Source: an uncultured Candidatus Saccharibacteria bacterium (GTDB taxonomy: Bacteria > Patescibacteriota > WWE3 > JAUXAW01 > CAYREW01). Taken from it: a DNA stretch of 61,276 nucleotides. Numbering within the stretch: the first letter of the stretch is position 1; every line of letters starts with the position of its first letter. Positions 623-34,929 of the stretch are shown here, piece after piece. The notes beneath the pieces are model-generated. The model was not told the origin of the DNA, made no database searches, and saw only the letters and a program-made list of their open reading frames with translations. The translations under genes were made by a program, and so were the position numbers. The stretch covers positions 1-61,276 of the forward strand of contig CAYVIL010000001.1 in the NCBI GenBank assembly GCA_964451675.1, in the 5' to 3' direction.

Positions 623-895
623 ATGAAAGTTATCAAAATTGGTGCTGTCTGGTGTCCGGATTGCTTAGTAATGCGTCCTCGCTGGGCAGAAATCGAAAAC
701 GAATATCCAGAACTGGAAACGGAATATTACGATTACGATAATGATCAAGACGAGATTGATATGTACGATGTCGAAGCGGAAAGGCTTCCCGTCTTTATTT
801 TTTTAGACAACGACGGTGAAGAGATTACGAGTTTTAGCGGGGAATACAGTAAAGAAGATTTGGAAGAAATTCTGGCAGAACATGGGTTCATATAG
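623..895 (+). CDS. Small thioredoxin/glutaredoxin-fold protein with a WCPDC redox motif
   Basis: KIGAVWCPDC is a CxxC active site after beta1. The 90-aa size and acidic C-terminal half also fit the thioredoxin superfamily. Confidence 0.8.
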   Translation: MKVIKIGAVWCPDCLVMRPRWAEIENEYPELETEYYDYDNDQDEIDMYDVEAERLPVFIFLDNDGEEITSFSGEYSKEDLEEILAEHGFI

Positions 896-1008
896 CCTTG
901 GGGAAACACCGCACTTAAAATCATATTTTTGTACCTTAAATACAGCAGGTTTCCTCACCAATCTTTTATCTTAAAAACATTAACTAACTTTACTAACTTA
1001 TCACTATA

Positions 1009-1260
1009 ATGTTCAGTAACAATAAAAGCCTAACCTTAATCCTATTATCTATAATCCTCATAAATCTAATTTATCCAACCCCAACGTTGGCCCAACAAAC
1101 AAATTAAAACAAAGTTATAGTTCATTTTTTTGGGGAGATAAGAACAGCAGACGTATCTTTACCCGCACGCTCAATAATATTAGAACTCCTAGATGGATTC
1201 AATCCTTGTGCTATGTGGGCTCTACTGTTTCTGATTAGCTTACTGCTAAAAAATGGTTAA
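1009..1260 (+). pseudogene. Decayed remnant of a secreted or membrane thiol-disulfide protein
   Basis: One reading frame gives MFSNNKSLTLILLSIILINLIYPTPTLAQQTN*NKVIVHFFGEIRTADVSLPARSIILELLDGFNPCAMWALLFLISLLLKNG*. That is a signal peptide, an in-frame TAA at 1105..1107, a fragment of a thioredoxin-like beta1 strand (KVIVHFF) and one Cys-containing TM helix, followed by a stop. It is far too short to be functional. Confidence 0.4.
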
Positions 1261-1267
1261 TGTTCGG

Positions 1268-2200
1268 CTAAAAACTTAAGATTTCCGCTTCAACCTGCTC
1301 TTTCCTTATACGGAGAACACCAAATTTAAGAAGTGCTTTAATTGAAAGTTCTGTCCCTAAGGTAGCTAACACCATTATAGGAGCGGAAAATATTCTTAAG
1401 ACAATAAAAAGAGCTATCCCCAAAAATAAGGGGATGTATTTTAGAAACGGCTGTACTAAATTGTTTACCTGCTGCTCAATAACAAGACGAACACCATCGG
1501 CGGTAAGTCCGGGAATACTCCTTTCACGGATAAGTTCATCCATTATCTCCGAATCCGGCCTTAATAAAGACTTCTTCTGCTCCTCCGTTAAGTCCTCACT
1601 ACTTTCTAGTATTGAACGCGCCTCTGTTTTAAAAGCCTCCTCGTCTAAAAGCAATGTTCTCCCTCCCATTCCCAAACCGACGAAAACATTTTCAACAACT
1701 TGATTAGTAACAGAGCGCGGCAAGGTAATCCGTTCTGGCGTAAATTGAATACTATAAAGTCCTAGACCAATACTAAGAAGAATAACGAGAAGCATAAACA
1801 AATTTTCCAAATAATCTTCAAAAATCTCGCCAATATTCAATTCAGTAAAAAGGTGCGCCTTAGCATGAATTTTTTGGACGAAATAGTAAACTAGTAATAT
1901 CGAAATAATTAAAGCAGGAATATATATAACCATCTGATTGATCAACAAAACCATAGGAGCAACTACTACAACAGCTAAAAGAATCTGAAGATATTTATTA
2001 CTGAATAAATAACCACTTAGAGAAGAGAAGTTCATTGTTAAAACAAAAGCTATAAAAGAAGCAATCCCTAAAATTACAAAGTTAGTAACATTCAAAGGAA
2101 AATTCTCAATAAGCAGCGAAGTAGCCCACCAAAAACCAGATGAGGCAAGAAAGCTGAGTACAACCAGTGTTATTTTCGTGCCAAGAATTTTCCTGTTCAT
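1268..2200 (-). CDS. Polytopic membrane protein of unknown function; paralogue of 26260..27216
   Basis: 310 aa with multiple TM helices. The start overlaps the gap stop codon (ATGA at 2197..2200). It shares sequence landmarks with the 318-aa ORF at 26260..27216. Confidence 0.7.
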   Translation of the reverse strand: MNRKILGTKITLVVLSFLASSGFWWATSLLIENFPLNVTNFVILGIASFIAFVLTMNFSSLSGYLFSNKYLQILLAVVVVAPMVLLINQMVIYIPALIISILLVYYFVQKIHAKAHLFTELNIGEIFEDYLENLFMLLVILLSIGLGLYSIQFTPERITLPRSVTNQVVENVFVGLGMGGRTLLLDEEAFKTEARSILESSEDLTEEQKKSLLRPDSEIMDELIRERSIPGLTADGVRLVIEQQVNNLVQPFLKYIPLFLGIALFIVLRIFSAPIMVLATLGTELSIKALLKFGVLRIRKEQVEAEILSF

Positions 2201-3201
2201 GCAATAAGATTTACCAAATCAGCTAATCGAGAGGCGTAGCCATATTCATTATCGTACCAAGCCACAACTTTAATAAGATTTCCTTCCAAAACTTCAGTAA
2301 GGGCTAAATCTACAATAGCTGATGCTGAATTACCGATTATGTCCAAGGAAACCAAACTATCAGAATCATCAACCGCAAGTATATTTCGCATCGAGCTATC
2401 TGCTGCACTCCTTAAAGCATTGTTAACTTCTGTTACATCTGTATCACCTTTAACATAAGCAACAAGCTCAACCACAGAACCACAAAGAACAGGAACGCGG
2501 TAGGCCATACCGCTAAGCTTCCCCTCTAACTGCGGTATTACTTTTGTTACTGCTACAGCAGCACCTGTAGGCTGAGGAATAGCTGCACTAAACGCTGCAC
2601 GGGTTCTCCGTAGATTTTTGCTTGGACCATCAACAAGATTTTGAGTCGAGGTTACTGCATGTACTGTTATTAAATGAGCTGAATTTATCCCAAATGTATC
2701 ATTAAGAACTTTTACCACCGGTGCGGCACAGTTTGTGGTGCAGGAAGCATTAGAAATAATGCGGTGTTTAGAAAAATTTAAAGACTGATCATTGACCCCG
2801 AGCACAACAGTATAATCAGCACTTTTAGAATTAGCTGAAATAATAACTTTTTCAGCACCTGCGCCTAAGTGTTTTTTTGCATCATCACGGTCTGTAAACA
2901 ATCCGGTAGACTCGATCACTGTTTCCACATCCAAATCTTTCCAAGGCAGCGCTGCCGGATCTTTTTCGCTAAAAACTTTTATTTCTTGGCCACCTACCAA
3001 CATTCTATCCCCACTAACCTCAACATCAAAAGAAAATTCGCCGTAGACCGTATCTTTCCCCAAAAGGTGAGCGAGCATATCTACATTAGTAAGATCATTA
3101 ATAGCAACTACTGAAATGTCTTCTTGAAGGTTACGATTAAAAATTGAGCGGAGTGTGGCTCGGCCAATACGACCGAAACCATTAATTGCAATACGTGACA
3201 T
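2197..3201 (-). CDS. gap: Glyceraldehyde-3-phosphate dehydrogenase, type I
   Basis: INGFGRIGR (NAD-binding site), SNASCTTNCAAP (catalytic Cys) and C-terminal WYDNEYGY are present in a 334-aa protein. Confidence 0.95.
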   Translation of the reverse strand: MSRIAINGFGRIGRATLRSIFNRNLQEDISVVAINDLTNVDMLAHLLGKDTVYGEFSFDVEVSGDRMLVGGQEIKVFSEKDPAALPWKDLDVETVIESTGLFTDRDDAKKHLGAGAEKVIISANSKSADYTVVLGVNDQSLNFSKHRIISNASCTTNCAAPVVKVLNDTFGINSAHLITVHAVTSTQNLVDGPSKNLRRTRAAFSAAIPQPTGAAVAVTKVIPQLEGKLSGMAYRVPVLCGSVVELVAYVKGDTDVTEVNNALRSAADSSMRNILAVDDSDSLVSLDIIGNSASAIVDLALTEVLEGNLIKVVAWYDNEYGYASRLADLVNLIA

Positions 3202-3209
3202 GTAGTGTT

Positions 3210-3218
3210 AATTTAACA
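3210..3218 (-). promoter_or_regulatory. Extended -10 (TGtTAAATT) 8 nt upstream of the gap ATG
   Basis: The minus strand reads TGTTAAATT-aacactac-ATG, with no SD. Confidence 0.5.
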
Positions 3219-3263
3219 CAGCAGTACTAGAGAGACAATAAGGTACCGTGATGTAGCAAGAAG

Positions 3264-3333: not shown

Positions 3334-4461
3334 TTAATCACCGAAAAGGAGTTTCTGCACATAGGCCTGGATCTCAGAAAAGTCACCCGCGCGCGGCACT
3401 AGCACATATTGCCCGCCATACGGTGCTCTGTTACTAGGAGCATAAAGAAAGCCTCCTTCTCCATCAGTCCCGTCAATCACCAGAGTTTTTACTTCCCAGG
3501 CAGCACCGAACTTGTCATAAATATGATACAGTTGCTCCAACTCAAACAGATCCAAATCCGTATCTACCGCGTCCTGTCCAGCCCTCCAGAGCTCCTTTAT
3601 CGTTGAGAAATCTGTAATATTCAAATCTAACAATTTATCCTTTACTGCTAATATTACTTTTTGCTGCCGTCTTGCCCTAGCAAAATCTGTTCCTTCCGCC
3701 CCAAGAGCGTGACGCGATCTGGCGTATTTTAAAGCAGTAACCCCATCCATAAGCTGTTTACCTGCGTCAAAATGTACATGCTCATATCGACACCAATACT
3801 TATATTGCTCTCTTTCCCTCTCGTCAGGATCTTCAATATCCTCTGCCGCAGCAGCCTCTGCCTCATCTATACCACAAAGGGCATTTTCCTTCCCAGGAAT
3901 TGGAAAATAGTAATCATCAAAAGCCTGTTCAACATTTACCTCTATACCCCCTAAAATATCTATACCTTTTCTAAAACCTTCAAAATCAACCATCGCGTAG
4001 TAATGAACAGGGAGCCCCGAAACCCCACTTACAGTGTTCTTAACAGTTTCTACACCTCCGTAAGAATATGCTGAATTTATTTTCGAATAATAATCTTTTT
4101 CTATCCTCACCCAAAGATCGCGAGGCAAAGAAACTAGTAGTGCCTCCTGCTCCTTCGGTGATAAGGAGACTAAAATTATGGTGTCTGTTAAAGTACCTCC
4201 AACCTCAGAGTCTAAACGGCGGTCTAATCCCAAAAGTAATATATTAGTCCGCCCTTCGGTACTTTCTAAACCAGAAGAGGAAACAATCCTTGAAAACACA
4301 GAAACAGGCTTAATAAGACTTACAAAAGAAAGGCTTAAAAATAATTTACCAAGTAGCAAAAAAACAGCAATAAAAACAGACCAAAAAACTACCTTTTTTA
4401 CTATAGACTTCTTTTTTCTACTGGAACTTTTAGATCTAATATTCCTATATTTTCTAGCCAT
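3334..4461 (-). CDS. LytR-CpsA-Psr (LCP) family cell-envelope glycopolymer transferase
   Basis: N-terminal basic region plus TM, then NILLLGLDRR...TDTIILVSL...LVSLPRDLWV...INSAYSYGG...VHYYAMVDFEGFRKGIDILGGIEV. SD AAGGAG lies 9 nt upstream of the start. Confidence 0.85.
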   Translation of the reverse strand: MARKYRNIRSKSSSRKKKSIVKKVVFWSVFIAVFLLLGKLFLSLSFVSLIKPVSVFSRIVSSSGLESTEGRTNILLLGLDRRLDSEVGGTLTDTIILVSLSPKEQEALLVSLPRDLWVRIEKDYYSKINSAYSYGGVETVKNTVSGVSGLPVHYYAMVDFEGFRKGIDILGGIEVNVEQAFDDYYFPIPGKENALCGIDEAEAAAAEDIEDPDEREREQYKYWCRYEHVHFDAGKQLMDGVTALKYARSRHALGAEGTDFARARRQQKVILAVKDKLLDLNITDFSTIKELWRAGQDAVDTDLDLFELEQLYHIYDKFGAAWEVKTLVIDGTDGEGGFLYAPSNRAPYGGQYVLVPRAGDFSEIQAYVQKLLFGD

Positions 4462-5250
4462 TTAAACTAACTCCTTATATAAATTAGATAACTTCTCTAT
4501 CTCTTCGTGAGTCCGTGTTTCTCCCACAGCTTCCAAACAGGCAAAAGCAACTGGTATCTGTCCATAGATATCGGCGGTTTGCTCATTAGCTACCAAAGCA
4601 TCCAAAAGAATCTGGCGCTTGGTAAAGTCGCTTGATTTCCAGCTGTCACTCCACCTTGTTTGTTCTGAAGAAACAGAAAGTATTTGATCTTCACCCCACA
4701 GACCCTGCAGTGTTTTTTGCAACAAATCAGAATTAGGAACAGCTAAATTCTTAACCGAGTTAACAACTATAGCTATAAGATTGCTAATAGCTGCAAACTC
4801 ATCCGTCATAATAAGCACAGAACCAGACTTAACCTCATGCTCCCTTAACCATTTTAGCTTTTCACTGTGTGACAGTGTACTTAACAAACTAGCGTCGGCA
4901 AATCGTGTTCCTTGCCCATCTATAACTAAGTAGTAAGGCTTGTCCAACGTATTGTAAACCGACAAACCGTAGTAACCTGCTCTTTTCAACTCTACTGGAA
5001 ATGACCCATCTATATACCTTTTATTCCCTCTAAAATAGGCCACTGCTCGATCACAACCAGGAAAAAAACCAGATAAAGGTCCTGTTGCTATTATTAATGT
5101 ATTCGACCTATTATTACGATCTTTTAAATCAGCAGATATTTTTAATGCAAAACCTAAACCACCCACGTAAGGTTCTAAATCAGCGTGCAGCTTCGGTTCT
5201 GCTAATTTAGTAGCTAGATCCACATACAAAAATCTCTTTTTATTATCCAC
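4462..5250 (-). CDS. Stand-alone aldehyde:ferredoxin oxidoreductase N-terminal (AFOR_N)-like domain protein
   Basis: FLYVDL..., GGLGFALKI, LIIATGPLSG and ELKRAGYYGLSVYN..KPYYLVIDGQGTRFADASLL run parallel to the N-domain of tungsten AORs. There is no CxxCxxxC cluster or pterin domain. I place the start at GTG 5250, because a perfect TGtTATAAT lies 10 nt upstream. The ORF-track ATG at 5340 abuts the upstream terminator T-tract. Confidence 0.65.
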   Translation of the reverse strand: MDNKKRFLYVDLATKLAEPKLHADLEPYVGGLGFALKISADLKDRNNRSNTLIIATGPLSGFFPGCDRAVAYFRGNKRYIDGSFPVELKRAGYYGLSVYNTLDKPYYLVIDGQGTRFADASLLSTLSHSEKLKWLREHEVKSGSVLIMTDEFAAISNLIAIVVNSVKNLAVPNSDLLQKTLQGLWGEDQILSVSSEQTRWSDSWKSSDFTKRQILLDALVANEQTADIYGQIPVAFACLEAVGETRTHEEIEKLSNLYKELV

Positions 5251-5260
5251 AGCAGGGGTA

Positions 5261-5269
5261 ATTATAACA
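5261..5269 (-). promoter_or_regulatory. Consensus extended -10 (TGtTATAAT) 10 nt upstream of GTG 5250
   Basis: The minus strand reads TGTTATAAT-tacccctgct-GTG. Confidence 0.55.
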
Positions 5270-5292
5270 TGGGAGGTGGGACATGGGAGGTG
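5267..5292. repeat. 12-nt direct repeat acatgggaggtg x2 (5267..5278 and 5281..5292) over the AFOR_N-like promoter
   Basis: Two exact copies are separated by gg. On the minus strand they cover the TGn of the -10 and the -35 position. Confidence 0.6.
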
Positions 5293-5354
5293 AGAAACAC
5301 CCAGCCAAGGAAAGCAAAGAGCTGAGCAACTGAAAAACATAAAAACAATAAGTT

Positions 5355-5386
5355 CGCCCTTGAGTGCAATATTAGACTCAAGGGCG
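5355..5386 (-). terminator. Rho-independent terminator of the three-gene cassette
   Basis: A perfect 11-bp stem, cgcccttgagt (5355..5365) with actcaagggcg (5376..5386), has a 10-nt loop. On the minus strand it is followed by AACTTATTGTTTTT (5354..5341). Confidence 0.75.
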
Positions 5387-5399
5387 GTGCTAACTTACG

Positions 5400-5780
5400 C
5401 TAAGTAGACTCCTCCTTTTGGAGCAGACGCTGGTAGATTGCCCACGCCACAGGGTGAAGCCCGTTGGGTAATCTACATTTGATCGCTGTTTCTGCTGCAG
5501 AAAAGAAAACTGCATGCTGACCTTTTACAGAAGCGCGTATCTTTTCAAGGTCCCTGTCTCTGGAATTACCAATACCCAAAAGTAAACTCTGCAAAGGTGT
5601 GCGAGGCGAAGAAAGTTTCTCCATCCACACATATTTTTCTGCCAGCTCATCCAAAGAAGCACGGCTTGTTCTGCAAGTTACTGAGACATCCCCATCACTA
5701 TCAACAGCTAATATAGAATCCTGCAAACTACCCATACCTGCCAAAACCTGGACAACATCCTCCGGACCTTTTATCAGCAT
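5400..5780 (-). CDS. Cassette protein C (126 aa), unknown function
   Basis: GGAGG (5788..5792) lies 7 nt upstream of the ATG, and the ORF overlaps protein B by 7 nt. I recognise no family motif. The N-terminal VLAGMGSLQDSILAVDSDGDV is only vaguely Roadblock/LC7-like. Confidence 0.6.
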   Translation of the reverse strand: MLIKGPEDVVQVLAGMGSLQDSILAVDSDGDVSVTCRTSRASLDELAEKYVWMEKLSSPRTPLQSLLLGIGNSRDRDLEKIRASVKGQHAVFFSAAETAIKCRLPNGLHPVAWAIYQRLLQKEEST

Positions 5781-6181
5781 AACACAACCTCCTGAAGGCT
5801 AAGTGCCACTCTCCTTGCAATAGCTAAAGCAGATAACCATTCGCGGCAAATTGTAAGGTCTGGACAATGATACTGCCTAATTGTTTCCTCATCCTTAAAT
5901 TCCAAACCTACTACCACAGTAATTTCCCTGGTAAGTTCAAATACCTCAGCCCAAGTTATCGATCCTTTACCTATTCTGTTTTGTGCAGTATGCAAACTTC
6001 TCGGGTTACCGTAAATAAGAGCTAAATCAAACTCTTCTTGCAAAAGCATCTTTCTTAGTTCAGAAAGATCAGCAACTCGAGTTACAGCTATATTTAGATT
6101 TGTGAGTTCGCCCTCGCGCGCGTCAGGCTCAGAACTTTTATGAACAGTAACCGGCAGATAGATTACTTTACCTCTCCACAT
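5774..6181 (-). CDS. Cassette protein B (135 aa), unknown function
   Basis: GGAGG (6188..6192) lies 6 nt upstream of the ATG, and the ORF overlaps protein A by 14 nt. It has an alternating beta/alpha-looking pattern and no recognisable motif. Confidence 0.6.
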   Translation of the reverse strand: MWRGKVIYLPVTVHKSSEPDAREGELTNLNIAVTRVADLSELRKMLLQEEFDLALIYGNPRSLHTAQNRIGKGSITWAEVFELTREITVVVGLEFKDEETIRQYHCPDLTICREWLSALAIARRVALSLQEVVLC

Positions 6182-6554
6182 TCGCCACCTCCACTGCTTC
6201 TTCCGGCAAAGTCGGTATTCCAGCTTCGCGCCATTTGTCCATAATCTGTACTGTCAAATTCCTAATCCGCCGCGCTTCTTCGGGATTAAAAGAATCAGGA
6301 ATCCGAGCAATTGCAATAAACGTCAGGGTTGCATCAAACCCTTTTTCAATGCGAATTGCTGCTGGCCGATAATCACTTAAACCTACCCGCCATTCAAGGG
6401 AATTACCGCGCATATACGTCCGTACCATGCCTGGAGTTGGTGCACAGCAGGGATAATCCCTGTCCCACTGGTAACCGTTTCTGTACCAAACCAACCAAAT
6501 CTGGTCGAGAACTTTCTGCGACAAGTTATTTATAGTAAGTGCGCCTTCAACCAT
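6168..6554 (-). CDS. Cassette protein A (128 aa), unknown function, Trp-rich
   Basis: GGAGG (6561..6565) lies 6 nt upstream of ATG 6554. The ORF-track start at 6557 is a TTG one codon earlier. No recognisable motif. Confidence 0.6.
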   Translation of the reverse strand: MVEGALTINNLSQKVLDQIWLVWYRNGYQWDRDYPCCAPTPGMVRTYMRGNSLEWRVGLSDYRPAAIRIEKGFDATLTFIAIARIPDSFNPEEARRIRNLTVQIMDKWREAGIPTLPEEAVEVANVER

Positions 6555-6603
6555 CAATCTCCTCCTTTGCTTATCTGTAAGACCTGCTTATCCGGGTTAA
6601 AAG

Positions 6604-6632
6604 ATTATAACAGCAGCACAACTATCTAGCAA
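6604..6632 (-). promoter_or_regulatory. Near-consensus sigma70-type promoter of the cassette: TTGCTA-17 nt-TATAAT
   Basis: On the minus strand the -35 is at 6632..6627 and the -10 at 6609..6604, with an exact 17-nt spacer. The leader to the SD and ATG is about 40 nt. Confidence 0.7.
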
Positions 6633-6649
6633 TCTTATAGGGTCGGGGG

Positions 6650-8566
6650 TTAATCGACAATCTCGCCTTCTTCTGCATCTTGGGGAGGTTCTTGGTCACC
6701 ATTATTGCCTGTATCTTCACCTTCACCTGCTGGTGGCGTTTGGGGACCCGCAGCTTCGGGGTCTGCTGACTTGTAAAGTTCTGCACCAACCTTCTGAATT
6801 TCTTCTGACAACTCCTCAGTCTTGGACTTCAAGATACCAATATCAAGATTATCGCCTTTTTCCAGCTCTTCGCGGACTGCTTTAATTTTCTCTTCAATCG
6901 GTTTTTTTACATTATCGCCAATTTTATCTCCCGCATCTTTTAATGCTTTTTCTGCTGTGTAAGCTAGAGTCTCTGCCTGGTTGCGTGCTTCAACACGTTC
7001 TTTCTTTTTCTTATCTTCTTCCGCATGCTTTCCCGCTTCCTTTGCCATTCTCTCCGCTTCTTCCTCCGAAATACCTGTCGAACCTTTAATTGTAATCTTT
7101 TGCTCTTTGCCTGTTGCCTTGTCTTTTGCAGAAACATTTAAAATCCCGTTAGCATCAATATCAAAACTTACTTCAATCTGCGGCACACCGCGAGGAGCGG
7201 GAGGAATACCTTCCAATATAAAACGACCTAGGGACTTGTTGTCTGCCGCCATTTCCCGCTCACCCTGCAAAACATTAATTTCAACAGATGTCTGATTGTC
7301 CGCTGCAGTTGAGAAAATCTGTGATGCAGAAGTAGGAATTGTTGTGTTCCGCTCAATAAGAGGTGTTCGAACACCGCCAAGCGTCTCAATACCAAGTGTC
7401 AATGGCGTAACATCCAAGAGCAGTACATCTTTAACATCACCACCGAGTACCCCAGCCTGGATAGCAGCACCAACAGCAACAACCTCATCTGGATTCACCC
7501 CTTTGTGAGGTTCTTTACCAAAAAATTCTTGTACAGTTTCCATAATCTTCGGCATCCGCGTCTGTCCGCCAACCAAAATAACCTCATCAATATCATTTAC
7601 TGAAAGGTCAGCATCTTCAAGCGCTTTTTTGCACGGTTCAATTGACTGCTGAATCAACTCCTCTGTCAGCTGTTCCAATTTTGAACGGGTTAAAGTAGTA
7701 ACTAAATGTTTTGGACCTGTCTCATCTGCAGTAATGTAAGGAATATTTATTTCTGTTTCCATTTTTGAGGAGAGCTCAATTTTTGCTTTTTCAGAAGCGT
7801 CCCGTAGCCTCTGCATTGCCTGCTTATCCTCACTTAAGTCCATACCCTGATCCTTTTTAAATTCTTCAAGTAGCCAATCAATTATTCTTTGGTCAAAATC
7901 ATCGCCGCCTAAATGTGTATCACCATTTGTCGCGCGGACCTCATAAACACCATCACCAATTTCCAATATTGAAATATCAAAAGTACCGCCGCCAAGGTCG
8001 TAAACAGCAATTTGCTCATTCTCTTTTTTATCCAAACCGTAAGCCAAAGATGCAGCTGTCGGTTCATTAATAATCCGCAAAACTTCCAAACCAGCTATTT
8101 CACCAGCTTGCTTAGTTGCCTGACGCTGCGAATCGTCGAAGTAAGCAGGGACAGTTATTACAGCTTGTTCAACTTCGTGACCTAAAAAGTCTTCTGCATC
8201 CTGCTTACACTTCTGAAGAATCATTGCTGAAATTTCTTGGGGTGTAAAGGTTTTGCCCTCAACCTTAACCATAGCCATACCATTTTTTCCTTCCACAATT
8301 TCATAGGGCAACCATCTAATATCGTATTGGACGGATTGATCATTAAACCTTTTACCCATCAAGCGTTTTATAGAGAAAATGGTACTTTGCGGATTTACTA
8401 CTTGTGAACGCTTTGCAGGACGCCCCACAATATTTTTAACAGGATCAACCACCGAAGGAATAAGATTTTCACCTTCGGCAGAATGTATTACCTTCGGCTG
8501 CCCCCCTTCCATCACAGCCACGCAGCTATTTGTCGTTCCCAAATCAATACCAATTATTTTAGACAT
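6650..8566 (-). CDS. dnaK: Molecular chaperone DnaK (Hsp70)
   Basis: [18 protein letters not shown] and [11 protein letters not shown] are present, together with a full substrate-binding domain and an acidic C-terminal tail. Confidence 0.97.
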
Positions 8567-8696
8567 AAGTTTAAATTACCAATCCTCCTGTTTGATTAAC
8601 ACACCCATTATTCAATACACAAACACCAAAAGTAAAGCACACCAGACAACAACCTCTAAATACTGCTCATTAGTACTCTTTACAATAAACAAGTTA

Positions 8697-9134
8697 CTAT
8701 TTTACTTTAACTTTTGCTGGCCGTAGAACCTTGTCTCCCAACATATAGCCTTTTTCAACTACTTCCGTCACTTTTTCATCACCGCCAGGCTCTTGTTCCT
8801 CCTCAACTCCCTCCATCTTAATAGGGTTAAAGTCCTTCCCCAAAGCGTCAATCTCTGTAACACCTTCTGACTGTAGCACTTTGCGGAACTTCTTTACAAT
8901 ATTCGTAACACCACCATCAACTCCGGATGCAACCGCTCTTTCTAAATCATCGAGAAGCGGAAGAACTTTCAACAAAATAACCTCATTCGCATACTTAGCA
9001 AAATCAGCGCGTTCCTTTTTAACCCTTCTTTCAAGATTACGGTAGTCAGCAACTGCCCGTTTCCAACTGTTCTCCAATTCCTGCACACGGTCTTCCAACT
9101 TATTGATCTGGTCATTTAACTCTTGTTCAGTCAT
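8697..9134 (-). CDS. grpE: Nucleotide exchange factor GrpE (short, 145 aa)
   Basis: Coiled-coil N-terminus with ADYRNLERRVKKE, and C-terminal GYMLGDKVLRPAKVKV. It lies between hrcA and dnaK. Confidence 0.85.
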   Translation of the reverse strand: MTEQELNDQINKLEDRVQELENSWKRAVADYRNLERRVKKERADFAKYANEVILLKVLPLLDDLERAVASGVDGGVTNIVKKFRKVLQSEGVTEIDALGKDFNPIKMEGVEEEQEPGGDEKVTEVVEKGYMLGDKVLRPAKVKVK

Positions 9135-9181: not shown

Positions 9182-9907
9182 TTACCAAGCGCGTCCTATT
9201 TCGTTCAGTAAGTTTCCTACGTAACGTGCTAAAGGAATAACTTTACGGTACGGCAGCCTACTCGGCCCTACTACAGAAATGCGCCCCTCTCTCTTACCAA
9301 CCTCAAAAGGAGAAGAAACAATCGAACAGGTTGCTAAACCAGGAAAACCAATTTCGTCACCTATCAGCACGTGAACCTCTTTATCGCCAATCGCCTTACT
9401 AAAAATTTCTTGGAACACTTCAGGACGGTCCAAGAGTGACAGAACAGCTCTAGTAACGTCAATATCAAAAAACTCAGGATGATCAAGAATGTTAGCTGCA
9501 CCCGCGGACGTTAAAATCCCGTCTTTAGTAACAACCACACCTAAAACATTACTACCCTCGGCTAAAGCTAATGATGCATTACGTAGCAACCTCTCCAACT
9601 CAAAGCGATCTTGCCACAAACGTTGCTTTATAGCAACCTCTTCTAAAACAGGTAATTCTTTTTCCTCCATTAAAGAGTTTATATAGTGACGGTAAGCCAT
9701 AGGGGTTGGCTCTCTTCCAGCAGAAGCGTGGGGTTTTTCCAAAAGCCCTTTCCTGGAAAGCTCCACCATCTCATTACGAATAGTAGCGGAGGAAACGTCA
9801 GACAAATACTGATCAACAATCTTTTTGGAACTAACCGGCTCCGGGCTTTCCCCATATTCCTCAATAATTGCTTTCAATAGAGCTGTTTGGCGCTGAGTAA
9901 GATCCAT
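9182..9907 (-). CDS. hrcA: Heat-inducible transcription repressor HrcA (short, 241 aa)
   Basis: LTQRQTALLKAIIEEYGESPEPVSSKKI...SSATIRNEMVELSRKGLLEKPHASAGREPT is the typical HrcA winged-helix N-terminus. Confidence 0.85.
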   Translation of the reverse strand: MDLTQRQTALLKAIIEEYGESPEPVSSKKIVDQYLSDVSSATIRNEMVELSRKGLLEKPHASAGREPTPMAYRHYINSLMEEKELPVLEEVAIKQRLWQDRFELERLLRNASLALAEGSNVLGVVVTKDGILTSAGAANILDHPEFFDIDVTRAVLSLLDRPEVFQEIFSKAIGDKEVHVLIGDEIGFPGLATCSIVSSPFEVGKREGRISVVGPSRLPYRKVIPLARYVGNLLNEIGRAW

Positions 9908-20995: not shown

Positions 20996-21907
20996 ATGGC
21001 AAATAAAAATTATTACGACATTCTAGGTATATCTAAAAACGCTACCCAACAAGAAATTAAAAGGGCATATCGCCGACTGGCTAAAAAACACCACCCTGAC
21101 GCTAACAAAAGTAAAGATGCGGAGCAGAGATTCAAAGAGATTTCCGAAGCCTACCAAATACTTTCTGATCCGCAAAAGCGAGCTACATACGACCGCTTCG
21201 GTTCCAGAGCTTTTGAGCAAGCAGCAGGTGGATCCAACCCGTTCAGGCAACGCCAAAATTGGGGGCAGCGGCAGGGTCCGTTTAGCTTCACGTGGAGCAC
21301 TAGCGGAGATTTCAACAACTTCCAAGATCCATTTGACCTCTTTGAAGAGATTTTCGGAATATCTGGCTTTGGGAGATCGCGTAGAGGACGTGATCTGCAA
21401 TACAATTTACAAATCAGCTTTGCAGACTCATTAAAAGGCATGGAAAGGAAAATCAACATAAACGGGGAAAAGTTCAAAGTGAAATTACCCCCCGGTGTTC
21501 AAAGTAACACCAAAATACGCTACCGCGGAAAAGGTGAAAAAGCCCAAGGAGGCAGGGGAGACCTTTACATTGTTGTTCGGGTTGGGCAACCAAAGGAATT
21601 CGCTCGCCGCGGTGCAGACATTTTAATCGAAAAGAAAATTGACCTAAGTACAGCTGTTTTAGGCGGTGATATTGATATACCGGTAGTTGATCCAGAAACA
21701 AAAAACGGTATAGGAAAAGTAAAACTTAAAATTCCACCCGGAACCCAACCAGGAACTGACTTCAGAATAAAAGGTAAAGGAATACCGCAAATGCGGACAA
21801 AAGGGCGCGGGGATGCCTACGTAAGGATACAAGTGGTAGTTCCAAAAAGCCTATCAAAAAAAGAAACGGACCTCTTTAAAGCGTTTGCGGAAAAAGCGGA
21901 TGTATAA
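20996..21907 (+). CDS. DnaJ-family co-chaperone, class II (CbpA-like, no zinc finger)
   Basis: J domain YYDILGISKNATQQEIKRAYRRLAKKHHPD, a G/F-rich linker and C-terminal beta domains are present. There are no CxxCxGxG repeats. Confidence 0.85.
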   Translation: MANKNYYDILGISKNATQQEIKRAYRRLAKKHHPDANKSKDAEQRFKEISEAYQILSDPQKRATYDRFGSRAFEQAAGGSNPFRQRQNWGQRQGPFSFTWSTSGDFNNFQDPFDLFEEIFGISGFGRSRRGRDLQYNLQISFADSLKGMERKININGEKFKVKLPPGVQSNTKIRYRGKGEKAQGGRGDLYIVVRVGQPKEFARRGADILIEKKIDLSTAVLGGDIDIPVVDPETKNGIGKVKLKIPPGTQPGTDFRIKGKGIPQMRTKGRGDAYVRIQVVVPKSLSKKETDLFKAFAEKADV

Positions 21908-34275: not shown

Positions 34276-34929
34276 ATGAATTTCAGAAACAAAATCATCC
34301 CCACCGCGACATTTGCTATTGCTGTATATATTTTAGCTTCACAATTGATAATACCGCTTTGGCAGTACAGAGCTCAACAAAACCTAGTCAATCCTGTTGC
34401 CGGTGCTTATACAACTTTCTGGGACCAACGCAGGGATTTGCTAATCTTAGAGGAGCCGCAAACACCGCCTCCTCCATTTTTCTACCTTTCAATACCTAAA
34501 ATTGAACTGGAGGAAGTTCCGGTAGAAACCAACAGCACAAAAGCACCGGACCAAAACCTCATCCATATTAAAGGAACTGCATTACCGGGCTCCGGCCAAA
34601 CCTCTGCTTCACAACTAAAAATACCAATAGTTGTTTCCGGTCACTCAGTATCACCTCTTTTTTTTAACTCCAAAGATCCTAGAACTTACTTCACTGGCTT
34701 ACCAAAACTACAGACTGGAGACGAGATAGAAGTTAACTTCCAAAACAAAAACTATAAATATAGCGTTGAGAAAAAAGAGGTTGTAAAACCAAAAGACCTC
34801 TGGGAAGTAATTAGCAAAGAAGCAGCTCTGAACCAAACAGAGCTAGTGCTATTTACTTGTGTACCACCTGGACTACGCACTAATCGTTTAATTATTTTTG
34901 CCCAGGCTTTAGAAAACCAGCAAAATTAA
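34276..34929 (+). CDS. Sortase family transpeptidase
   Basis: N-terminal TM, YLSIPKIELEEVPV, His in VVSGHS, Cys in LVLFTCVPPG and Arg in TNRLII give the H-C-R catalytic triad in the right order. Confidence 0.8.
   Translation: MNFRNKIIPTATFAIAVYILASQLIIPLWQYRAQQNLVNPVAGAYTTFWDQRRDLLILEEPQTPPPPFFYLSIPKIELEEVPVETNSTKAPDQNLIHIKGTALPGSGQTSASQLKIPIVVSGHSVSPLFFNSKDPRTYFTGLPKLQTGDEIEVNFQNKNYKYSVEKKEVVKPKDLWEVISKEAALNQTELVLFTCVPPGLRTNRLIIFAQALENQQN

Follow-up and report, generated by a model that had tools for sequence, protein, structure and literature searches.

A clade-restricted gene pair downstream of dnaK in Candidatus Saccharibacteria and the probable insertion of a third gene at its stop/start junction

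Introduction

In Thermus thermophilus, the small protein DafA is encoded in the dnaK operon. It assembles the DnaK-DnaJ complex, a DnaK3-DnaJ3-DafA3 complex has been described, and orphan Hsp70 co-factors accordingly exist (PMC3727329). J-domain co-chaperones such as DnaJ, CbpA and DjlA carry a DnaJ domain with an HPD motif. Units of a different kind, the type II toxin-antitoxin (TA) loci, consist of two small, adjacent, co-directional genes in one autonomously promoted operon, and tripartite toxin-antitoxin-chaperone (TAC) loci add at their end a third gene, for a SecB-like chaperone. Here we analyze a cassette of three small genes, termed A, B and C, that directly follows dnaK in the genome of an uncultured Candidatus Saccharibacteria bacterium (GenBank assembly GCA_964451675.1, contig CAYVIL010000001.1, positions 1 to 61,276; this whole stretch of 61,276 nt is referred to as the window). 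An earlier interpretation made from the letters alone, referred to below as the sequence-only reading, had described the cassette as a self-contained three-gene module standing in the place of dnaJ, and had likened it to TAC modules. Comparison with related loci points to a different history, in which an older pair, A and C, received B as a later insertion.

Results

A two-gene operon in the relatives of the window

The three open reading frames (ORFs) lie on the minus strand exactly as they had been described: A at 6554..6168 (128 aa), B at 6181..5774 (135 aa) and C at 5780..5400 (126 aa), with overlaps of 14 nt between A and B and of 7 nt between B and C. The start of A given by the ORF lister is a TTG one codon before the ATG; the ATG was taken as the start because it aligns with the GTG start of the relatives. 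A word-indexed protein search returned one relative of A (69% identical) and two of C (83–84% identical). An exhaustive HMMER search, in which A, B and C were joined as one query against 1.84 billion representative proteins, added P0007 (identical to the protein of locus L003/L004), P0008 and P0010 for A, at 35–39% identity, and P0012 for C, at 42% identity, and with P0002 these make up the recovered A homologues. B matched only itself in both searches. The A and C families thus comprise four or five lineages in ~15 billion proteins (the 1.84 billion representatives). In a collection of species-representative genomes a single locus was matched, L004, again from an uncultured Candidatus Saccharibacteria; two metagenome scans for additional members or for cassette-less relatives gave no match, and no relative without the A-C pair was recovered in the metagenome and genome-collection scans. 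A literature search on the dnaK neighbourhood of Saccharibacteria found nothing relevant.

The recovered loci share one arrangement. A Saccharibacteria metagenome-assembled genome (L003/L004) has the order hrcA-grpE-dnaK-A-C-AFOR_N-like-LCP-GAPDH-membrane protein-Trx, which is that of the window except for B. A Logan assembly (L002) carries dnaK-A-C, a JGI metagenome (L005) carries grpE-dnaK-A-C-AFOR_N-like, and assembly GCA_964462365.1 (L001) carries a short upstream ORF followed by A, C and then Trx; the L001 region is near-identical to L002, and its short upstream ORF is probably the 3' end of dnaK. The A homologue directly follows dnaK in L002, L003/L004 and L005, and B is present in none of these loci. 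In L001/L002 and L003/L004 the stop codon of A overlaps the start codon of C (ATGCTGA), which is the same overlap that joins B to C in the window, and in L005 a short spacer takes its place. Conservation in the relatives extends to the promoter hexamers, to the two ribosome-binding sites and to the stem of the terminator (DNA alignment A1). Taken together, these loci indicate that the ancestral form is a clade-restricted two-gene operon of Candidatus Saccharibacteria, A then C, immediately 3' of dnaK. The view that the cassette usurps the slot of dnaJ is not supported by this comparison: A-C already follows dnaK in all four lineages, and dnaJ simply lies elsewhere in the window. The view of a co-conserved three-gene module fails, since the relatives couple A directly to C without B.

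L001 (1000..5700) carries the block AFOR_N-like-LCP-GAPDH-membrane protein-Trx in the opposite orientation to that of the window and L004, so that Trx follows C. The breakpoint of this inversion lies directly after the cassette terminator.

An insertion that carries gene B

Relative to all relatives, the window contains 394 additional nucleotides at the A/C stop-start junction (5794..6187, minus strand; alignment A1), which carry the ribosome-binding site, the ATG and the body of B. The boundaries of the insertion may shift by a few nucleotides because GGAGGT is present on both sides. The window A ends in a new tail and stop codon (..EEAVEVANVER), and the C-terminus of B, EVVLC-stop, is the former tail of A, which in the A proteins of the relatives reads EEVAVC-stop or EEAVC-stop. 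A GGAGGT..ATG junction flanks B on both sides, and the A/B junction of the window, GGAGGTGGCGAATG, resembles the A/C junction of L005, GGAGGTGGCGCTATG. The insertion gave A a new stop, while B took over the old last codons of A together with the 7-nt overlap, so that all three ORFs keep a GGAGG and an overlapping stop/start. Site patterns in DnaK (33:21:19) place L005 outside the window and L004; because L005 is without B, the more parsimonious account is that B was gained once, in the lineage of the window, and not lost repeatedly. The comparison thereby lends good support to B as a lineage-specific insertion.

The origin of the inserted DNA was sought in several directions. A blastn search found no source of it in the window or the fetched loci, and the ends of the insertion have no terminal inverted repeats. 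B fits A and C in length, and its descent from a diverged tandem copy of either was considered and rejected, as BLASTP and hhalign show no relation. A parvulin-like isomerase was likewise rejected: the only matches are borderline, TIGR04142 at E = 0.023 (far below the cutoff) and PDB 3nrk at E = 0.14; both come from one Leptospira family and are not independent of each other, and there was neither a Pfam rotamase match nor a parvulin protein in the exhaustive search.

Could the insertion be DNA that is open by chance, or an artefact of assembly, leaving A and C as the real unit? B is known from a single contig and has no homologue, a comparative selection test is impossible for a singleton, and its AlphaFold confidence is very low (predicted local distance difference test, pLDDT, of 25–41 in the fused chain described below), a figure that is itself uninformative because the demonstrably conserved C also models poorly. 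Set against these points, an open frame of 134 codons was kept in only 12 of 200,000 shuffles (p ~6e-5). Read in frame, B has a host-like codon score of 0.110, compared with −0.095 and 0.014 for the remaining forward frames, which contain 11 and 15 stops; the G+C content at third codon positions (GC3), 0.316, is host-like as well. A GGAGG stands 6 nt ahead of the ATG, the overlaps with both neighbours are exact and coupling to C is preserved. A chimeric assembly, moreover, would not be expected to give an in-frame splice into the tail of A. We therefore regard a non-functional or artefactual B as rather unlikely. The open frame measured against shuffles, the host-like codon score and the exact coupling to both neighbours argue that B is coding and very probably translated.

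The absence of B from the relatives also bears on the tripartite idea. Co-conservation, which the sequence-only reading had named among the tests of its module, is seen for A and C and not for B, and by that standard the tripartite idea fails. The TAC reading is not supported: no SecB-like protein and no known toxin or antitoxin domain was found in the cassette.

Expression signals of the cassette

A sigma-70-type promoter is predicted upstream of A at 6604..6632 (minus strand), with TTGCTA, a 17-nt spacer and a TATAAT preceded by TG (extended −10). It matches the consensus at 10 of 12 positions, which makes it the top match within 4300..9000 in a promoter scan, and promoter-like sites in the region as a whole are no more numerous than in shuffled sequence. 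Credibility comes from its recurrence at the same position in two relatives: L004 has identical hexamers in the same place and L005 has TTGAAT-17-TATATT. The promoter columns are invariant in alignment A1. GGAGG lies 6–7 nt ahead of the ATG of A, B and C (6 nt for A and B). At the other end, an intrinsic terminator at 5341..5386 (minus strand) is formed by a hairpin (5386..5355) with an 11-bp GC-rich stem and a T-rich tail, with a folding energy of −23.3 kcal/mol (z = −4.0 relative to shuffled sequence). All four lineages have a stable hairpin with a T-tract, and those of L001, L004 and L005 reach −19 to −23 kcal/mol (z −4.6 to −6.9). Explanations of the locus at the RNA level were rejected, since the leader shows no conserved structure, no Rfam family was matched and no CIRCE element was found. 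Promoter, ribosome-binding sites and terminator all agree with what had been read from the sequence at the outset, and the cassette is a complete transcription unit with its own promoter and its own terminator.

The translation signals stand out in their surroundings, as had also been noticed. Among the 49 long ORFs of the window, GGAGG at 6–7 nt occurs only in A, B and C, and a weaker GGAG-type motif in two further ORFs. Many genes of the window have an extended −10 box (TGnTAnAAT) ending 7–16 nt ahead of the ATG, a pattern that suggests widespread leaderless or near-leaderless mRNAs.

The gene directly upstream on the same strand is dnaK (6650..8566, minus strand). Its stop codon occupies 6652..6650, the −35 hexamer of the cassette follows 17 nt further on, and no terminator-like site lies between the dnaK stop and the cassette promoter. 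Read-through of dnaK transcription into the cassette, proposed earlier on the same grounds, is thus possible. We hold this anatomy of the cassette, and the evolutionary history set out above, with high confidence.

Protein families and predicted folds

The inability of the sequence-only reading to place the three proteins in any family was borne out. None of the members of the A, B and C families has a credible match in Pfam, NCBIfam, PADLOC, PHROGs or PDB sequences, and the anti-phage defence components of PADLOC gave zero families for all members. A and C are not related to each other, and by these searches they appear to constitute new protein families. A is the Trp-rich, acidic and variable member of the pair, C the conserved one, and B a singleton; all three proteins are acidic and soluble-looking.

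Structures were predicted with AlphaFold for a fused A+B+C chain, using an unpaired block alignment of all homologues. For A, pLDDT is 72–93 over residues 4–121, and the model contains helices at 13–27 and 41–47, strands at 52–56, 66–71 and 76–82, and a helix at 91–110. A Foldseek search with the fused model returned nothing at E 0.001 or better, and A was without a match below 0.01; the best matches had E = 0.1 (PDB) and 0.026 (BFVD), all poorly superposed. On the strength of this model, A has a well-defined predicted fold that goes unrecognised by the PDB and BFVD libraries searched. A also matched the tetratricopeptide repeat (TPR) proteins P0009 and P0011 and, in the PDB, designed proteins with helical repeats; these matches were dismissed as spurious, because their score comes from summing many weak repeat matches. 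The pLDDT of C is 42 when it is modelled alone (three sequences) and 28–54 in the fused chain. Confidence in the C and B models is so low that a fold search on them is not meaningful. The suggestion that C begins like a Roadblock/LC7 protein found no statistical support: four members of the C family gave no Pfam match at E up to 1, and the low-confidence models, where Robl_LC7 would show an alpha-beta-beta-alpha-beta-beta-beta fold, predict a helical C-terminal half.

Composition, selection and histories of A and C

The ratio of nonsynonymous to synonymous rates (omega) is 0.25–0.49 for A and 0.09–0.18 for C, which indicates that both are coding and under purifying selection. GC3, which the sequence-only reading had thought worth computing, is raised in A (0.45) and C (0.41) above the 0.340 ± 0.031 of 46 host genes, and is host-like in B. 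The excess in A and C recurs in L001, L004 and L005.

The two genes diverge at unlike rates. DnaK is 89–91.5% identical among the window, L004 and L005. The identity of A is 67% between the window and L001 and 36–43% in all other pairs, and that of C is 81–84% among the window, L001 and L004 and 39–44% to L005. C of L005 is thus far more diverged than DnaK would lead one to expect. This C homologue (2860..3232) is also split by a frameshift near codon 17, beside a GGG run, which may reflect an error in sequencing or the onset of pseudogenization.

Between the window and L004, C uses the same codon at 74% of conserved residues (synonymous difference, pS, 0.39), compared with 43–56% for nine other genes (pS 0.64–0.84). 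In the promoter and A, site patterns place the window beside L001 (104:39:41). Over the 3' two-thirds of C it is L004 that pairs with the window (35 vs 14 and 12 at third codon positions), and the four flanking genes give a near-star tree. Such discordance of A and C points to allelic exchange or recombination, whose breakpoint would lie close to the A/C junction, the present place of B; we regard the evidence for this exchange as suggestive.

The DnaK system and other neighbouring genes

Upstream of dnaK on the minus strand lie grpE (9134..8697) and hrcA (9907..9182). The dnaJ gene (20996..21907, plus strand; Pfam DnaJ 1.6e-28, DnaJ_C 6.6e-40) lies ~14.4 kb off, in line with the 14 kb given before. 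It is the sole J-protein gene of the window, and its product has a J domain and a C-terminal domain and is without the zinc-finger domain, like CbpA. The CIRCE operator (TTAGCACTC-N9-GAGTGCTAA) is absent from the whole 61 kb window at up to three mismatches, though hrcA is present. DnaK ends in ...DAEEGEIVD(D) in the window (6650..6690, minus strand), in L002 (12..203) and in L004 (5565..7493); this acidic tail recalls the EEVD motif of eukaryotic Hsp70, which docks TPR co-chaperones.

This setting invites a reading in which A and C serve the DnaK system as lineage-specific accessory factors, whether in assembly, as a tail-binding co-factor or in regulation, DafA-like in concept and co-expressed with hrcA-grpE-dnaK by read-through, with B as a later addition. 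It would account for the fact that in all four lineages an A homologue comes straight after dnaK, on the same strand and not separated from it by a terminator, and for a pair that stayed with dnaK when the downstream block of L001 inverted; a dnaJ that is encoded elsewhere and has no zinc-finger domain is compatible with it, DafA provides a precedent, and, more speculatively, the EEVD-like EEGEIVD tail of DnaK could dock a partner. It has to contend, however, with the independence of the cassette, which has a strong and conserved promoter and translation signals of its own and differs from dnaK in composition. Identities of A and C that drop to 36–44% between lineages whose DnaK is ~90% identical are hard to fit with a conserved binding partner. 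Neither a J domain nor an HPD motif is present in the cassette proteins, no CIRCE element occurs in the window, and the A homologue of a distant relative (L006) lies away from dnaK. Synteny itself is weak evidence here because the lineages are close and unrelated downstream genes are syntenic too. We consider such an accessory role unlikely. A more specific form of it, in which A-C would be a new Hsp70-associated factor pair of a Saccharibacteria clade, with the new fold of A or with C docking on DnaK, perhaps on EEGEIVD, and with B arising de novo or just captured and being wired in by translational coupling, is very unlikely.

The gene that follows the cassette (4462..5340, minus strand) matches AFOR_N only (Pfam, 3e-16) and is without the catalytic C-terminal domain of aldehyde:ferredoxin oxidoreductase. 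It is kept beside the LCP gene in L001 and L004, and L006 has a full AFOR_N+AFOR_C gene. The ORF as listed contains a TATAAT box at ~5262, so the gene probably starts downstream of 5340. At 34487..34572 (minus strand), ARAGORN called a tRNA of 86 nt that has an odd anticodon loop and was assigned no identity; the call has no Rfam support at the gathering score, lies inside the ORF 34276..34929 and is probably a false positive.

In L006 (52% GC; region 804..1899), the A homologue is flanked on one side by a FemAB-like gene and a 182-aa ORF, and on its other side by ksgA and uvrD. The 182-aa protein precedes the A homologue; it matches nothing in Pfam, and its N-terminal CxxC...CxxC motif resembles a zinc ribbon. 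FemAB and uvrD genes also neighbour the dnaK region in the window.

Discussion

We propose that the A-C pair is an accessory, exchangeable module rather than part of the core chaperone machinery. This proposal is drawn from the high GC3 of the pair, its Shine-Dalgarno dependence in a genome that mostly lacks such sites, the deep allelic types of A and the discordant histories of A and C, and a module of two partners is favoured also by the self-contained expression signals, the asymmetry of rates and the rarity of the families. A and C would form a binary interacting pair, in which the fast-evolving upstream A binds the more constrained downstream C and modulates or neutralizes it, much as the partners of a type II TA or effector-immunity system do. 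A constitutive promoter of its own would drive the cassette, supplemented under heat stress by transcripts that run on from dnaK. B would be a late acquisition, coupled to the pair by translation, with a function still unfixed. We give this mechanism, in which a variable A modulates a conserved C, a probability of roughly 0.3.

An alternative with fewer commitments is that A and C are ordinary clade-specific genes with an unrelated cellular role or a role in the epibiont lifestyle, that their place after dnaK is synteny inherited by accident and that their odd composition and rates reflect constraints of their own. Genomes of the candidate phyla are rich in hypothetical proteins. The flanking AFOR_N-like, LCP, GAPDH and Trx genes share the synteny of these lineages, neither family nor structure searches suggest a specific function, and A stands alone in L006. 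What such a role leaves unexplained is the GC3 excess and the exclusive use of GGAGG, the stop/start coupling in three of four lineages and the discordant site patterns of A and C, and it makes no testable mechanistic prediction. We nevertheless rank it as more probable than either the binary pair or the DnaK accessory factors, and place it somewhat short of even odds.

If the proposal of a binary, conflict-type module is correct, ultra-small episymbiotic bacteria would possess two new protein families of this type, one of them with a confident predicted fold that has no structural neighbour. If instead the pair serves DnaK, it would represent a rare case of an Hsp70 co-factor confined to one lineage. 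In either case the locus offers a clean natural example of a new gene joining an operon, by a 394-nt insertion into a 7-nt stop/start overlap that left coupled junctions on both sides. These prospects should be read in proportion: orphan genes and cassettes are common in candidate-phyla genomes, the A/C family is tiny, and its function is a proposal drawn from sequence.

The likeness to type II TA loci, on which the proposed binary pair is modelled, lies in architecture and evolution. A and C are two small, adjacent, co-directional genes in one autonomously promoted operon; they overlap, are translationally coupled and have a promoter and a terminator to themselves. Of the two, the upstream one evolves faster, and the pair has a very narrow distribution, an atypical composition and signs of exchange between lineages. 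Several observations weigh against the analogy and against the mechanism built on it. A and C are without homology to any toxin or antitoxin superfamily in Pfam, NCBIfam, PADLOC or PDB sequences, and resemble no immunity or defence family either; none of the cassette proteins has relatives in phage, plasmid or IMG/VR collections. The predicted fold of A is outside the usual DNA-binding folds of antitoxins, with no recognisable ribbon-helix-helix, helix-turn-helix, AbrB or Phd domain, and the promoter has no local inverted repeat or palindromic operator. Both A and C are acidic. In each of the four lineages the pair sits at the same fixed locus beside dnaK, where signs of a mobile element are absent. 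The recombination signal comes from a few dozen sites in small genes. In L006 the A homologue occurs alone, with neither dnaK nor C nearby, so that A can evidently function without C. A physical interaction of A with C is putative, and the pair is known here from its sequence.

TAC modules share with the cassette the three small adjacent genes and a chaperone-related neighbourhood. They differ in that neither SecB nor any other chaperone domain occurs in A, B or C, and in that the third gene, B, stands in the middle rather than at the end and is absent from every relative, and so was not co-inherited. From the J-domain co-chaperones DnaJ, CbpA and DjlA the three proteins are set apart by the lack of a Pfam DnaJ match and of an HPD motif. 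DafA is comparable as a small lineage-restricted protein tied to the DnaK system, given the position of A-C beside dnaK in four lineages; the cassette differs in having its own promoter, a composition unlike that of dnaK and proteins that diverge far faster than DnaK, and is likened to DafA by genomic position. For B the nearest counterpart is the gain of an ORFan gene within an operon: B is a singleton of host-like composition, found in one lineage and inserted in an existing operon, and transfer, extreme divergence and de novo origin are all candidate sources of its DNA. It departs from that pattern in the unusual exactness of the insertion point: the new DNA falls within the 7-nt stop/start overlap and restores a coupled junction at either end.

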